DNA of 20,000 bases, taken from an uncultured virus (IMG/VR IMGVR_UViG_3300046532_001410). Taxonomy: Duplodnaviria > Heunggongvirae > Uroviricota > Caudoviricetes. Made by a program: the position numbers and the translations under genes. Position 1 is the first letter of the stretch. The number at the start of each line of letters is the position of its first letter. A model generated the notes under the pieces. That model saw only the letters and a list, made by a program, of their open reading frames with translations. It ran no database searches and was not told where the DNA came from. The DNA is taken from IMG/VR virus record IMGVR_UViG_3300046532_001410; one strand, 5' to 3'. Positions 3,649-14,354 of the stretch are shown piece by piece.

Positions 3649-3685
3649 ATATAGAGATTCCCACATTGGTTTTACCATTGTTTGA

Positions 3686-3693
3686 TATTTATA
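3686..3693 (+). promoter_or_regulatory. Putative late promoter motif TATTTATA
   Basis: Recurrent intergenic motif. Confidence 0.55.
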
Positions 3694-3696
3694 AGT

Positions 3697-3972
3697 ATGA
3701 GAAAAAGAAGTTGGAAAGATAGAAAAAATAGAAAATGTCCATCTTGTACTAAGATGTTAACATATTCAAGAAAAGATGCTTTTGATAGAGCAGTTGGTAA
3801 TAATAGTGTGTGTAAATCGTGTGCACAATCTGATAGAAAGTTAACATTGGATACGATTGAAAAGATGAAACAACCAAAGACTATCCAACATAAGAAAAAG
3901 ATTTCTAATTCAATACAGAATTGGTGGGAAGAACGTAAACAAGAAGAGATAAGACATGGCATTAATAGATAG
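3697..3972 (+). CDS. Small basic Zn-ribbon/NUMOD3-like DNA-binding protein
   Basis: CPSC...CKSC pair followed by LTLDTIEKMKQPKTIQHKKKISNS (NUMOD3-like). ATG 3697 preferred over TTG 3682. Overlaps the next gene by 17 nt. Confidence 0.6.
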   Translation: MRKRSWKDRKNRKCPSCTKMLTYSRKDAFDRAVGNNSVCKSCAQSDRKLTLDTIEKMKQPKTIQHKKKISNSIQNWWEERKQEEIRHGINR

Positions 3973-10738: not shown

Positions 10739-13078
10739 ATGGCCGAGAGAATAGTCTCACCAGGTGTATTTACAAGAGAAAAAGATTTATCTTTCCTACC
10801 ACAAGGTATTGCTGATATTGGAGCTGCAATCATTGGACCGACAGTTAAAGGTCCGGCGTTTGTACCAACACAAGTAACAAGTTTTTCGGAATTTGAAAAT
10901 ATCTTTGGTGGTTTAGATACTCGATTTTATGTACCATATACCGTCCAAGAATATATAAAGAATGCTCCGACCGTCACCATAGTTCGTGTATTAGGAATCG
11001 GTGGATATAAACATTCTGCAGTTAGAGTTAACTTATCAAGTTCACTCGGAACATATACTGCAGCAGTTTTAAAACCATCAAGACTAAGTAATACGTTGGA
11101 TTTAGGTGGTGTAACGAGTGCATCTTTAGCAGCGGGAGCTGATTTTGCTGGAGGCTCTATCACAATAGGTAGTGTATCTGCAAAAACAATAAGTTTTGAT
11201 ACAGGTTCGGATGATTACATCGAAAAAGTATTCGGAACAGACCCACAAACAACTAACACAAATGTATATGTGTATAAATCATTTAAAAAATTCCATTCAA
11301 GTAATGGATTTGATGCTAATGTAAGTATGAGTTTAGTCTCAGCTTCAACTGCAACTGGTGATGATTTTACACACGATTACAAAGTAGCAACAACACCTTA
11401 TATTGTATCACAATTAAGTGGTGGAGCTAGAAAAAATTTATTTAAAGTTAATACTCGTTCGCATGGTACGAATGTAAATGATGATTTCAAGATTGCAGTA
11501 GCAGATTTGACAACAGCAGCTAATGTACCAGGTTCTGATTATGGTTCTTTTGCACTCCGTGTATTAAGAAACAATCCAGGCGAAAACAATGATGGTGAAG
11601 TTCTTGAAGAGTTCACCAACCTTAGCTTTGACCCTGATTCAGTAAACTTTGTACCAAGAGCAATTGGTGATAGATATGTAACAATTGATACAGAAGGCAA
11701 ACTTACCTACAATGGTGATTGGCCAAATCAATCAGTTCATGTATATCTAAGTGATTACTCTTCAAATCTTGAGGGAATAGCATCAGATTTATTACCACAT
11801 GGATTTGCAGCAGCATCTAACCCAGTTCTCGGTACTACACAAATCCCAAGTGCAAGTTTTGTTTCACAACAAACTAACACACTCGGTGTATTTGACCAAA
11901 ATGTGTACTATGGTTGGGATTTCTCAAATACTGACAATAAAGCATTCACATCACCAATACCTGCAAGTGCTGGTACTGGTAATAATGCAGTATTCAGTTT
12001 AGAGAATATGTTAGGACACGCGGATGCAACTACAATAGGGGATACCCAAGAATCAGTAGCAGCAGAGGCAATTACATTAGCTCTTTCAGCGAAAGCTCAA
12101 AGAAAATTTATAATTCCTTTTCAGCATGGATTTGATGGAGATGACCCGACTGTATTGAAAGCAACTGGTAATGATATTTCTGCAACAAACCAACAAGGTT
12201 TAGATTGTAGTGGTACTACTGCTAGTGGTTCAATCGCGTACAAACGAGCAATTAATGCTGTATCAAACCCAGATGAGTTTGATATTAACTTACTTGTAAC
12301 ACCTGGTATTATACACGAATATCACAATTCCGTTTCAAACCACGCTATATCAAAAGTAGAAGCTCGTGCAGATGCTTTTTATGTAATGGATGGTTCAAGA
12401 TGGGGTAGAAGTGTAGCTAATTCAATCAATGATATTAAAACATTGGATACGAATTATGCTGGTGTATATTATCCTTGGGTCAAGATACTTGATTCAGTAA
12501 AGAATAAACCAATGTGGGTTCCGCCTTCCGTAGTGATACCTGGTGTGATTAGTTTCACAGATAGTGTAGCACACGAATGGTTTGCTCCTGCTGGTTTAAA
12601 CAGAGGTGGATTGAGTTCAGTATTGGAAGCAAAAACACGACTAACACATACAGAACGAGATGATTTGTATGAAGGTCGTTTGAATCCAATCGCTTCATTC
12701 CCAGGTCAAGGTGTTGTAGTTTTCGGACAGAAAACACTACAAGGTAAACCAAGTGCACTTGATAGAATCAATGTACGAAGATTGTTAATCAGACTTCGTA
12801 AGTTCATTGCTTCTTCATCAAGATACTTAGTATTTGAACAAAACACATCCGCAACAAGAAATAGATTCTTAGGAATCGTTAATCCTTTCTTAGCGAGTGT
12901 TCAATCAAATAGTGGTTTAAGTGCATTTAAAGTAGTAATGGATGATTCTAACAACACACCAGATGTTGTTGATAGAAACCAGTTAGTAGGACAGATATTT
13001 ATCCAACCTACACGAACTGCTGAGTTCATTGTACTTGACTTTGTAATTCAACCAACAGGTGCAGCATTTCCTGAATAA
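10739..13078 (+). CDS. Contractile tail sheath protein
   Basis: N-terminal SPGVFTREKDLS; C-terminal YYPWV, VPPS, WFAPAGLNRG, FGQKTLQ..SALDRINVRRL, FEQN and IQPTRTAEFI, all hallmark sheath motifs. Confidence 0.97.
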   Translation: MAERIVSPGVFTREKDLSFLPQGIADIGAAIIGPTVKGPAFVPTQVTSFSEFENIFGGLDTRFYVPYTVQEYIKNAPTVTIVRVLGIGGYKHSAVRVNLSSSLGTYTAAVLKPSRLSNTLDLGGVTSASLAAGADFAGGSITIGSVSAKTISFDTGSDDYIEKVFGTDPQTTNTNVYVYKSFKKFHSSNGFDANVSMSLVSASTATGDDFTHDYKVATTPYIVSQLSGGARKNLFKVNTRSHGTNVNDDFKIAVADLTTAANVPGSDYGSFALRVLRNNPGENNDGEVLEEFTNLSFDPDSVNFVPRAIGDRYVTIDTEGKLTYNGDWPNQSVHVYLSDYSSNLEGIASDLLPHGFAAASNPVLGTTQIPSASFVSQQTNTLGVFDQNVYYGWDFSNTDNKAFTSPIPASAGTGNNAVFSLENMLGHADATTIGDTQESVAAEAITLALSAKAQRKFIIPFQHGFDGDDPTVLKATGNDISATNQQGLDCSGTTASGSIAYKRAINAVSNPDEFDINLLVTPGIIHEYHNSVSNHAISKVEARADAFYVMDGSRWGRSVANSINDIKTLDTNYAGVYYPWVKILDSVKNKPMWVPPSVVIPGVISFTDSVAHEWFAPAGLNRGGLSSVLEAKTRLTHTERDDLYEGRLNPIASFPGQGVVVFGQKTLQGKPSALDRINVRRLLIRLRKFIASSSRYLVFEQNTSATRNRFLGIVNPFLASVQSNSGLSAFKVVMDDSNNTPDVVDRNQLVGQIFIQPTRTAEFIVLDFVIQPTGAAFPE

Positions 13079-13103
13079 GTTTAACTTATAAAATAGCTTA
13101 TAC

Positions 13104-13144
13104 GAAAAACCCACAATCTTAAATGACTGTGGGTTTTTCTTTTT
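13104..13144. terminator. Bidirectional rho-independent terminator
   Basis: Perfect 12-bp inverted repeat GAAAAACCCACA (13104-13115)/TGTGGGTTTTTC (13128-13139), giving a T-tract on each strand; sits between convergent units. Confidence 0.85.
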
Positions 13145-13275
13145 AGGAGGTCACAATGAATAAATTTTGAGAGTTTAACCACCTAACTCACAAGGGTTGT
13201 TTCTAATTTCGTGAAACACTACATAACCCAAACCGATTCCAAATTATCGTAGTATATCGGCAACCCACGAATCTA
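13145..13275 (-). ncRNA. Candidate multi-pseudoknot non-coding RNA
   Basis: Five complementary segment pairs in the order a-b-c-d-c'-d'-a'-b'-e-e'. G-U pairs favour the minus strand. The 3' tail contains ACCUCCU. Confidence 0.55.
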
Positions 13276-13281
13276 ATATAA

Positions 13282-13530
13282 TTACATTAGTTCTAACATA
13301 GCAAAAGGAACATTATACAACCTACCATTCATATCAACAATAGCCTTTTTAATATTCATCTTAGTGATGACACCAGGAGTTTTCTTTGTCTTTTGAACAA
13401 CATAAACCTTAGCTCCAACACATAACGATGATTTTCCCAACATAGTCTTACAATCATTAATATAGGAAGATAATTCATTCAGTTCTGACAGTGAATTTAA
13501 TCCCCTAATTTGTTGTTTTATCTTAATCAT
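13282..13530 (-). CDS. Small protein: N-terminal helix plus SH3/KOW/Tudor-like barrel
   Basis: 82 aa; pattern LCVGAKVYV...TPGVITKMNIKKAIVDMNGRLYNVPFAML; AAGGA RBS and its own promoter. Confidence 0.7.
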   Translation of the reverse strand: MIKIKQQIRGLNSLSELNELSSYINDCKTMLGKSSLCVGAKVYVVQKTKKTPGVITKMNIKKAIVDMNGRLYNVPFAMLELM

Positions 13531-13550: not shown

Positions 13551-13586
13551 TACCTTAATATAAGGCCATTTCGCCATATAAGTCAA
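13551..13586 (-). promoter_or_regulatory. Sigma70-type promoter P1 (TTGACT-N18-TATATT)
   Basis: -35 at 13581-13586, -10 at 13557-13562, A-rich upstream tract; ~25 nt before the 82-aa ORF. Confidence 0.75.
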
Positions 13587-13704: not shown

Positions 13705-13740
13705 TACCTTAATATACAACATAAATACTATACAAGTCAA
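13705..13740 (-). promoter_or_regulatory. Sigma70-type promoter P2 (TTGACT-N18-TATATT)
   Basis: -35 at 13735-13740, -10 at 13711-13716; same hexamers, spacing and downstream AAGGTA as P1. Confidence 0.75.
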
Positions 13741-13862: not shown

Positions 13863-14354
13863 ATGGCCGACATACTAACAACAGATGAAATCTTTTTTAA
13901 AGCATTTGAACCGAAAACAAAGAATAGGTTCATTATGTATATTGATGGGATACCATCTTATTTCGTAAAGACAGCTAATAGACCACAGATTACTTTTGAA
14001 GAAATCGAACTTAACCATATCAATGTAAAACGATATGTTAAGGGTAAAGGTACGTGGGAGCCATTAGAGATAACTCTATATGACCCAATCGTTCCAAGTG
14101 GTGCACAAGCAGTAATGGAATGGGTAAGATTACATCACGAATCAGTAACAGGTCGCGATGGATATGCAGACTTTTATAAAAAAGAAGTTCGTTTCAATCT
14201 TTTAGGACCAGTCGGTGATAAGGTTGAAGAATGGGTACTACATGGTGCTTTCATTCAAACTGCAAACTTCAATGATTTAGATTTTGCTAATGGAACAGAT
14301 GTTGCTGATATATCGTTAACACTACGTTACGATTACGCAGTACTCTCGTTCTAA
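13863..14354 (+). CDS. Tail tube protein (T4 gp19-like)
   Basis: 163 aa; FEPKTKNRF, VKGKGTWEPLEITLYDPI, DFYKK, VEEWVLHGAF, LTLRYDYA; follows the sheath. Confidence 0.92.
   Translation: MADILTTDEIFFKAFEPKTKNRFIMYIDGIPSYFVKTANRPQITFEEIELNHINVKRYVKGKGTWEPLEITLYDPIVPSGAQAVMEWVRLHHESVTGRDGYADFYKKEVRFNLLGPVGDKVEEWVLHGAFIQTANFNDLDFANGTDVADISLTLRYDYAVLSF

Follow-up and report, generated by a model that had tools for sequence, protein, structure and literature searches.

Pseudoknots 2 to 4 of tmRNA (PK2-4) are usually viewed as interchangeable folding spacers. They are described as aiding mainly folding and maturation, and ribosomal protein S1 is described as contacting the pseudoknot ring, with the strongest binding reported at PK2 and not at PK4 (PMC3968760). 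A second group of small H-type pseudoknots is formed by the type III repeats of the ToxI type; the toxin ToxN requires the single-stranded tails of ToxI, and the core alone did not bind (PMC8860590). The manA RNAs (RF01745) are non-coding RNAs of marine phages and were proposed as cis-regulatory leaders (PMC2864571). Phage RNA mimicry through repeat expansion has a precedent (PMC3475682).

The RNA studied here is a row of three separable modules over 109 bases on the minus strand of an uncultured virus (IMG/VR record IMGVR_UViG_3300046532_001410), the window being the whole stretch of 20,000 nucleotides that was analysed. Compared with its relatives, the first module is a knot of the tmRNA PK4 type (RF00023). 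In phage tmRNAs members of the same sequence family lie directly 5' of the helix 2 3' strand and the T-arm, whereas the knot of the window lies outside tmRNA and lacks a tRNA-like domain or tag frame, and the free family comes in one to three copies. With the manA RNAs it has the phage group and often the locus in common, but the fold is unrelated and the knot is about five times smaller. Nested double-pseudoknot ribozymes (HDV-like, pistol, twister) have only the general presence of pseudoknots in common with the motif; its nested topology is not conserved, and the 201-nt region gave no Rfam match at E up to 10. At gathering level, no Rfam family was found for the window, the 201-nt region or the two-unit array. 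In the literature searched no description of the motif was found. Four supplementary files of an 8,495-motif IMG/VR catalogue (PMC10690425) contain no match, and the motif may be one of the unnamed entries of that catalogue. The use of a tmRNA pseudoknot domain as a free module, without an Rfam family, appears to be new.

The window represents the structural region of a large marine myophage with tail sheath and tail tube genes; the nearest GenBank sheaths are just 42-51% identical to the sheath of the window. The RNA is the non-coding 3' part of an antisense cassette, presumably early, which consists of a promoter, a small ORF, the RNA modules and a terminator and occupies the gap between these two genes:

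10739..13078, plus strand: tail sheath gene, left neighbour of the cassette
13104..13139, strand not assigned: 15-bp hairpin from folding, with T/A runs on both sides, a putative bidirectional terminator for sheath gene and cassette
13140..13166, minus strand: variable pyrimidine-rich tail 3' of module 3, with a CCUCC tract in the window
13167..13193, minus strand: module 3, a simple hairpin (helix e) with a GG-containing loop
13194..13229, minus strand: module 2, apparently a diverged paralogue of module 1, helices invariant and not covarying
13233..13270, minus strand: module 1, an H-type pseudoknot of about 38 nt by family comparison and covariation, 40.2 bits with model R1 (built including the window sequence)
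13282..13530, minus strand: ORF for an 82-aa hypothetical phage protein, the only ORF before the array
13557..13586, minus strand: sigma-70-like promoter directly 5' of the small ORF, 10/12 consensus matches, the putative early promoter of the cassette
13711..13740, minus strand: upstream sigma-70-like copy, 10/12 matches, a consensus match only
13863..14354, plus strand: tail tube gene, right neighbour of the cassette, one Pfam match below cut-off

Six sigma-70-like sites were found where shuffled sequences lead one to expect 5.1. A terminator scan of the window made no call, the hairpin at 13104-13139 included, and the RNA contigs covering the sheath stop at 13074-13094. The sheath-tube gap of the relative G002 lacks such a cassette, so the latter was inserted within a single clade of large marine myophages, all uncultured. 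The 82-aa protein belongs to a large family (648 matches) and yielded no Pfam family at cut-off, no PHROG match and no PADLOC match. DNA matches to its ORF comprise hypothetical genes of Pelagibacter phage HTVC008M and Methylophilales phage Melnitz; in both GenBank phages the match is to the ORF part, the RNA part not being included. Of 80 loci of relatives of this protein (the best 80 of 182), 28 have a match to R1 (E < 0.05) no more than 1.5 kb away. In relatives other ORFs take the place of this one, so the protein is not tied to the RNA. That the ORF encodes a cognate toxin or partner of the RNA was rejected, the ORF being exchangeable and without family.

The CCUCC tract occurs in 3 of 46 distinct array tails and is therefore not conserved; its pairing with the loop of module 3 was rejected on this count. 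On the plus strand, an AGGAGG ribosome-binding site at 13145-13170, the sole one of the window to have an ATG nearby, opens a 4-codon frame over the array tail. A function for this site and frame at 13145 was likewise rejected, conservation being absent from most relatives (3/46 tails). Elsewhere in the window, a small Cys-rich ORF (3682-3972, zinc-ribbon-like, below the Pfam cut-off) is located amid long tail-fibre-like genes.

Evidence from metatranscriptomes consists of contigs of four RNA runs (X1, X3, X4 and X6), from which strand, ends and level cannot be read and whose libraries possibly contained DNA. Runs labelled seawater or marine metagenome contain parts of the region. One X6 contig with 37 differing letters spans 13154-13515 and joins ORF and array, and X4 contigs cover parts of the ORF. 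Contigs of X1 and X3, from two studies, cover the ORF and share one end position, 13266, which lies five bases inside module 1; this common stop may reflect an assembly branch. In three of the four runs (X1, X3, X4) no contig covers most of the array.

Module 1 very probably is a self-contained H-type pseudoknot, with two interleaved stems that both covary within its family. It is built as follows:

13270-13267 with 13250-13247, minus strand: S1, in which the 5' CGU pairs with the module's own loop
13266-13261, minus strand: L1
13260-13256 with 13237-13233, minus strand: S2 (helix c), continued by an internal loop and then C13252-G13240
U13251 facing U13241, and 13246-13242, minus strand: junction and loop

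A recurring unit of the order N-GUGG, linker, stem, CUAC-N', AUUUG, stem was recognized in the loci fetched with the ORF (best 80 of 182). Pattern scans of viral contigs, metagenomes and genomes extended the family to at least 154 distinct units among the matches listed; a loose first version of the pattern was dropped, swamped by chance matches. Seventy units, chosen for diversity, were aligned and constitute the rows of R1; all had already passed a filter that required five or more Watson-Crick pairs in the stem, and counts for S2 are therefore biased in this alignment, whereas those for S1 are not. The outer S1 pair is kept in 64 of the 70 units, in 22 via change on both sides, and it is Watson-Crick in 94 of 102 distinct listed metagenome matches as compared with a shuffled mean of 46 and a maximum of 59. 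Compensatory changes occur at all three core S1 pairs, those at the two inner ones in the loci L203 and L281, L672 and L747, and L713 (neighbour units not selected by the pattern). For S2, a fairer test considers only positions left free by the scan pattern: among the matches listed, three consecutive free pairs are present in 95 of 102 distinct ones from metagenomes and in 58 of 66 from viruses, but in only 4 of 35 from cellular genomes, which served as controls. In long-loop units S1 is longer by one pair (7/7 and 10/10). The nature of L1 position 7 tracks the S2 junction type, G going with tandem G-A in 86/86 and U with U-A pairs in 40/43 cases, which hints at a base triple, though shared ancestry is also possible. 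The unit sequences are related, hence all these counts represent non-independent events.

The knot family of module 1 constitutes the last pseudoknot, at the PK4 position, of tmRNA genes in related marine phages. Among the matches listed, the unit is placed directly 5' of the tmRNA 3' strand and T-arm in 30 of 260 distinct contexts, ARAGORN calls a tmRNA in 12 of 46 loci given to it (27 of them picked as tmRNA-type), and in full tmRNA sequences the unit is the last knot. A scan on the tmRNA 3' signature alone returned at least 120 loci with 77 distinct sequences, 69 of them with a T-arm. Although the knot pattern was not used there, 29 of these 69 listed sequences carry the canonical knot just upstream; the other 40 carry variant last knots, many visibly homologous and some of clearly different fold. 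In the variants positions 5 and 6 change and the C-G closure is mostly kept, from which S1 was put, by eye, at 3-4 pairs. R1, with tmRNA copies among its 70 training rows, scores tmRNA knots at 36-44 bits. In L712 (624-745) a free-standing run of inner tmRNA domains lies 3' of a gene, lacks the tmRNA 3' end and terminates in a knot of the free type and a promoter, which we regard as a probable sign of exchange between tmRNA and free knots. The free copies may derive from the tmRNA knot or recombine with it.

The window itself has no RF00023 match, and its array is followed by tail and terminator hairpin in the place of a tRNA-like domain with T-arm and CCA end. Neither a tag frame nor PK1 was found in it: only the 82-aa ORF precedes the array, and a profile of the inner tmRNA has no match in the window. 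Searches of GenBank phages with a phage tmRNA query and a two-unit query returned only short chance or T-arm matches. The canonical motif was found in no cellular tmRNA of the samples searched (0/35 genome matches); R1 matched one of 121 Bacteroidota genomes, at a locus without tmRNA, and the motif is unlike the last knot of the three cellular tmRNAs compared. This counts against mimicry of a host RNA.

An earlier note on this DNA had proposed a pseudoknotted RNA on the minus strand. This much is borne out by the relatives, in which the RNA proves to be non-coding and conserved. The earlier note had drawn it as a single nested double pseudoknot made of helices a to d, followed by hairpin e; these helices, and two that belong to module 2, are:

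13271-13266/13213-13208, minus strand: helix a, complementarity
13265-13261/13199-13195, minus strand: helix b, complementarity
13260-13256/13237-13233, minus strand: helix c, complementarity, identical with S2 of module 1
13255-13244/13226-13216, minus strand: helix d, 11 pairs with one G-U and one bulge
13217-13213/13203-13199, minus strand: inner helix of module 2, absent from the earlier note
13229-13225/13198-13194, minus strand: outer helix of module 2, absent from the earlier note

On re-checking the sequence, all strands of a to e are in place and the four 5' strands of a to d abut without gaps; hairpin e (13193-13167) contains a U-U mismatch that had gone unmentioned. The complementarity exceeds that of shuffled controls, with 29 pairs in the 91-nt region as against a maximum of 28 for the same topology, 27 or more being reached once in 400 dinucleotide shuffles. 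The nested folding energy of the region is unremarkable (z -0.33 and -0.39), and the minimum-energy fold of the window sequence alone contains b and d. What had been missed is S1 inside module 1 and the two helices of module 2, which compete with the 3' strands of a, d and b. In 36 aligned arrays the single nested fold is only 85.9% paired, compared with 99.5% for the modular structure. Helices c and e are supported; a, b and d have hardly any covariation, one pair of a changing once, on both sides. The single double pseudoknot is accordingly not supported. As modules 1 and 2 are paralogous and both contain GGGUU, each 5' strand complements the loop of the other, so that a, b and d exist without a need to form; they look like cross-pairings between paralogous modules.

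Module 2, which seems to be a diverged duplicate of module 1, has a conserved 7-nt bulge and 9-nt loop that find a partner either in the module itself or in module 1. It resembles a subfamily of units with loops starting with CAACG and ending with UUAG. A scan for module 2 with changed stems returned one variant type only and no covariation of its helices, the GGG of the local outer helix being invariant at positions which the scan left free; its own knot and the outer helix are probably sterically exclusive. The stem of module 3 is common to the second canonical knot of sister arrays, and other relatives carry a different hairpin there.

Modules 1 and 2 probably fold independently of each other. 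In 39 distinct arrays of both modules, obtained from 255 loci in which the same contigs recur, c covaries, the fifth pair of b fails to form in 34 and the first pair of d holds in 14. In an alignment of 36 arrays, c alone has changes on both sides if one ill-aligned terminal column of a is set aside, and 30 rows break the fifth pair of b; gaps mis-register the short-loop rows of this alignment in the d extension and at the outer S1 pair, the latter falling into a gap column for 29 rows. Both modules also occur separately. The other arrangement, possible but in our judgement the less probable one, is an exchange of strands in which the 5' strand of module 1 pairs with the loop of module 2 (the core of a) and the loop of module 1 with the bulge of module 2 (the core of d), c and the inner helix staying in place. 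It would explain that the outer S1 pair is relaxed only when module 2 follows (15/27 paired, compared with 41/48, 41/42 and 21/22 elsewhere; 21/39 in a separate count of arrays with module 2), and that C-A is common (9) and U-G absent at this pair before module 2, a pattern expected if the bases pair across modules. The matching cross-module pairs hold in 37/39 and 31/39 arrays, bulge and loop of module 2 hardly vary and complement module 1 exactly, a b-like helix is what RNAalifold chooses to close the region, and in an ensemble limited to nested folds the window sequence alone has a P(d) of 0.99. A shortened form of a and d that spans the two modules may accordingly be real. Against the exchange stands a compensatory G-C to C-G swap of the inner S1 pair in 2 of the 39 arrays, which breaks the centre of both a and d and keeps the module 1 knot. 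Furthermore, module 2 occurs without module 1 in two contexts (L285 and L526; L302) and in altered form in seven contigs, identical module 1 sequences are found with and without module 2 (L027 and L205), and of 52 arrays just 5, the window among them, have P(d) above 0.5 and 4 have P(b) above it. Only a few genomes possess the long extension of d, and the invariant GGG belongs to the local outer helix. The exact fold of the earlier note corresponds to an extreme of strand exchange in which b replaces the local outer helix, and it takes up only a small share of the chance we allow to such exchange. Folds of any other kind are very improbable. Strand exchange would be compatible with either of the two leading functions discussed below.

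Free knots lie behind promoters, in RNA arrays and before terminators, and they are shuffled with other small RNA modules. Among the matches listed, tandem units are present in 121 of 260 distinct contexts, copies at most 16 nt from a promoter in 4 of 260, and 41 of 229 distinct motif loci are situated at the 3' end of the sheath gene. The tandem period is 31-43 nt, mostly 34-39, and in 51 of 62 tandem pairs the linker is zero or negative, that is the units abut or overlap. The neighbours are tRNAs, manA RNAs (above the Rfam cut-off in 6 of 20 loci) and T-arm-like hairpins, and in G002 a Ro60 gene. Among 35 matches listed from the cellular-genome scan only L654 and L655 look real, whereas L642 has the stem but was judged a chance match. 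L655 (a 928-bp contig of a Verrucomicrobia assembly) and L654 (a contig of a Nitrosopelagicus MAG) carry phage-type arrays inside cellular assemblies; they seem to be phage contigs binned there, either a possible hint at the host or contamination, and no tube gene was found in the two genomes (0/2).

The unit occurs at 5' ends, in arrays, inside tmRNA and before terminators, and a translation switch or terminator is therefore unlikely. Among the functions listed in the earlier note, protein decoy and nuclease-resistant RNA still lead, whereas a ribozyme has become unlikely and an antitoxin fails the comparison with ToxI. We put the decoy first, though tentatively and short of calling it probable. 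Free knots made early and in several copies would act in trans as a shape decoy or ligand. Their target would be an RNA-binding protein of the host whose usual partner is the tmRNA pseudoknot ring, ribosomal protein S1 being the known example, or alternatively an anti-phage ribonuclease; binding would titrate or redirect the target protein. Tandem copies (the 121 of 260 contexts), promoter-driven cassettes, shuffling and the neighbours (tRNA pieces, manA RNAs, the Ro60 gene in G002) favour such a trans-acting decoy. It is weakened since a purely structural cap would account just as well for the conserved core and the independence of position, and since the knot is variable in tmRNA (the 40 of 69 variants), PK2-4 serve mainly folding and maturation, and S1 prefers PK2.

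A nuclease-resistant cap or spacer, a compact and fast-folding knot that would protect or punctuate early transcripts in cis just as it would aid folding in tmRNA, ranks close behind the decoy, though on the unlikely side. Copies are found at transcript 5' ends (L027, L664, L684, L690) and between stop codon and terminator, as in the window and in the above-mentioned loci at the sheath 3' end. The flanks are enriched in an A/U-rich RNWUU word, in our view similar to an RNase E site, with 69/160 and 62/124 occurrences against a background of 17% and 23% in sequences that are non-independent. The service of PK2-4 in folding and maturation also fits a cap (PMC3968760). On the other hand, the 3' end in the window is already capped by the 15-bp terminator hairpin, a roadblock gains little from a second or third abutting copy, and no processed ends are seen in the RNA contigs, contigs being the only form of these data.

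The free copies might also be remains of lost tmRNA genes, or recombination hot spots at which shared sequence shuffles early cassettes, an explanation that we consider improbable. None of 14 partial genomes (28-79% complete) has a contig with both tmRNA and free copy, nine bearing tmRNA and five free copies; L712 looks like a tmRNA fragment, and the modules are clearly shuffled. However, both stems of the free copies go on acquiring compensatory changes, and this requires the RNA fold to be under selection.

Slightly less credit still is due to a pseudo-antitoxin, by which the units would mimic type III repeats of the ToxI type and neutralise a ToxN-like host RNase. In common with ToxI (RF02519) and the PhiTE pseudo-ToxI are the small H-type knot, a GGUG/UACC-like stem 1 of 3-4 bp, which by eye resembles that of the ToxI rows in its central G-C pairs and the U-U junction next to it, a tandem period of about 36 nt and phage-borne copies. 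The ToxI repeats compared have the GGUG ... UACC stem-1 core (PMC3401426, supplementary file 2), their mean period is 38 nt (PMC3401426), ToxI is described with a U-U pair at its junction (PMC8860590), and non-identical functional repeats exist in tenpI (PMC13682666). The differences weigh more. S2 has 7-12 pairs in 235 of 252 units, in place of 3-4 in ToxI, and the intercalated G of ToxI is U here, a position fixed by the scan patterns and also by the pattern for protein-anchored loci. As most tandem pairs abut or overlap, the single-stranded tails that ToxN needs are missing, and A-rich tails with a cleavage site were not found. ToxI consists of near-identical tandem repeats upstream of a terminator and the gene for the toxin, whereas the units here are non-identical and have an antisense sheath gene beyond the terminator. 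No toxN gene lies close by, and the neighbours include no toxin family. A search for RF02519 gave no match and detected no control either. The same knot, finally, has a second home inside tmRNA.

A self-cleaving ribozyme processing the arrays is highly improbable, for the common stop of the X1 and X3 contigs at 13266 is countered by the X6 contig that reads through and by a strain branch point four bases from where it would explain the contig end, no Rfam ribozyme matches, and the same knot sits in intact one-piece tmRNAs.

Taken to its full extent, the preferred decoy would mean that a group of marine myophages lifted one tmRNA knot into a free, amplifiable early small-RNA effector, with tandem and strand-swapped two-unit folds, such as that of the window, acting as a decoy for an anti-phage ribonuclease or a translation factor of the host in array carriers that perhaps lack tmRNA; as a whole this scenario is doubtful. 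Selection on a PK4-type knot that is copied and shuffled in early cassettes away from tmRNA implies an independent function, and the role of PK2-4 becomes testable with an RNA of 38 nt. If the knots are decoys, RNA-based counter-defence extends beyond pseudo-ToxI.

The loci also expose modular phage small-RNA arrays (knots, T-arm mimics and manA RNAs, near a Ro60 gene) that annotation misses. A recurring array module with a long closing stem, a conserved ACUG ... CUGG core, variable inner hairpins and no Rfam family is present in L025 (2066-2125), L026 (2040-2100) and L004 (about 1850-1920). Mini RNAs resembling the tRNA elbow, with a T-arm and a GGUUCGAAUC-type loop, occur in L023 (590-635), L026 (1975-2030) and, just after the ORF, L043; an anticodon arm is absent, and ARAGORN does not call them. 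Directly upstream of a Ro60/TROVE gene, which is Pfam-confirmed in G002, two conserved RNAs starting with GGGUCGGA are found in L023 (1069-1320), L039 (2640-2890) and L049 (2250-2500); by resemblance, we presume them to be candidate Y RNAs. The manA RNAs of L015 (1640-2017), L025, L026, L045, L046 and L050 are above the Rfam cut-off and have a second manA-like stretch upstream (18.8 bits in L015). A UUGACCGAA-type word is present in the manA RNA, in this upstream stretch and in the candidate Y RNAs. L661 (382-800), L710 and L737 hold phage tmRNAs, about 410-420 nt in length, in which a long insert precedes the tag frame and the pseudoknot-like domains seem to number five. In L015 (1190-1215), L668, L671 and L696 other small modules capable of forming pseudoknots abut the unit upstream, which suggests a kit of interchangeable knots.
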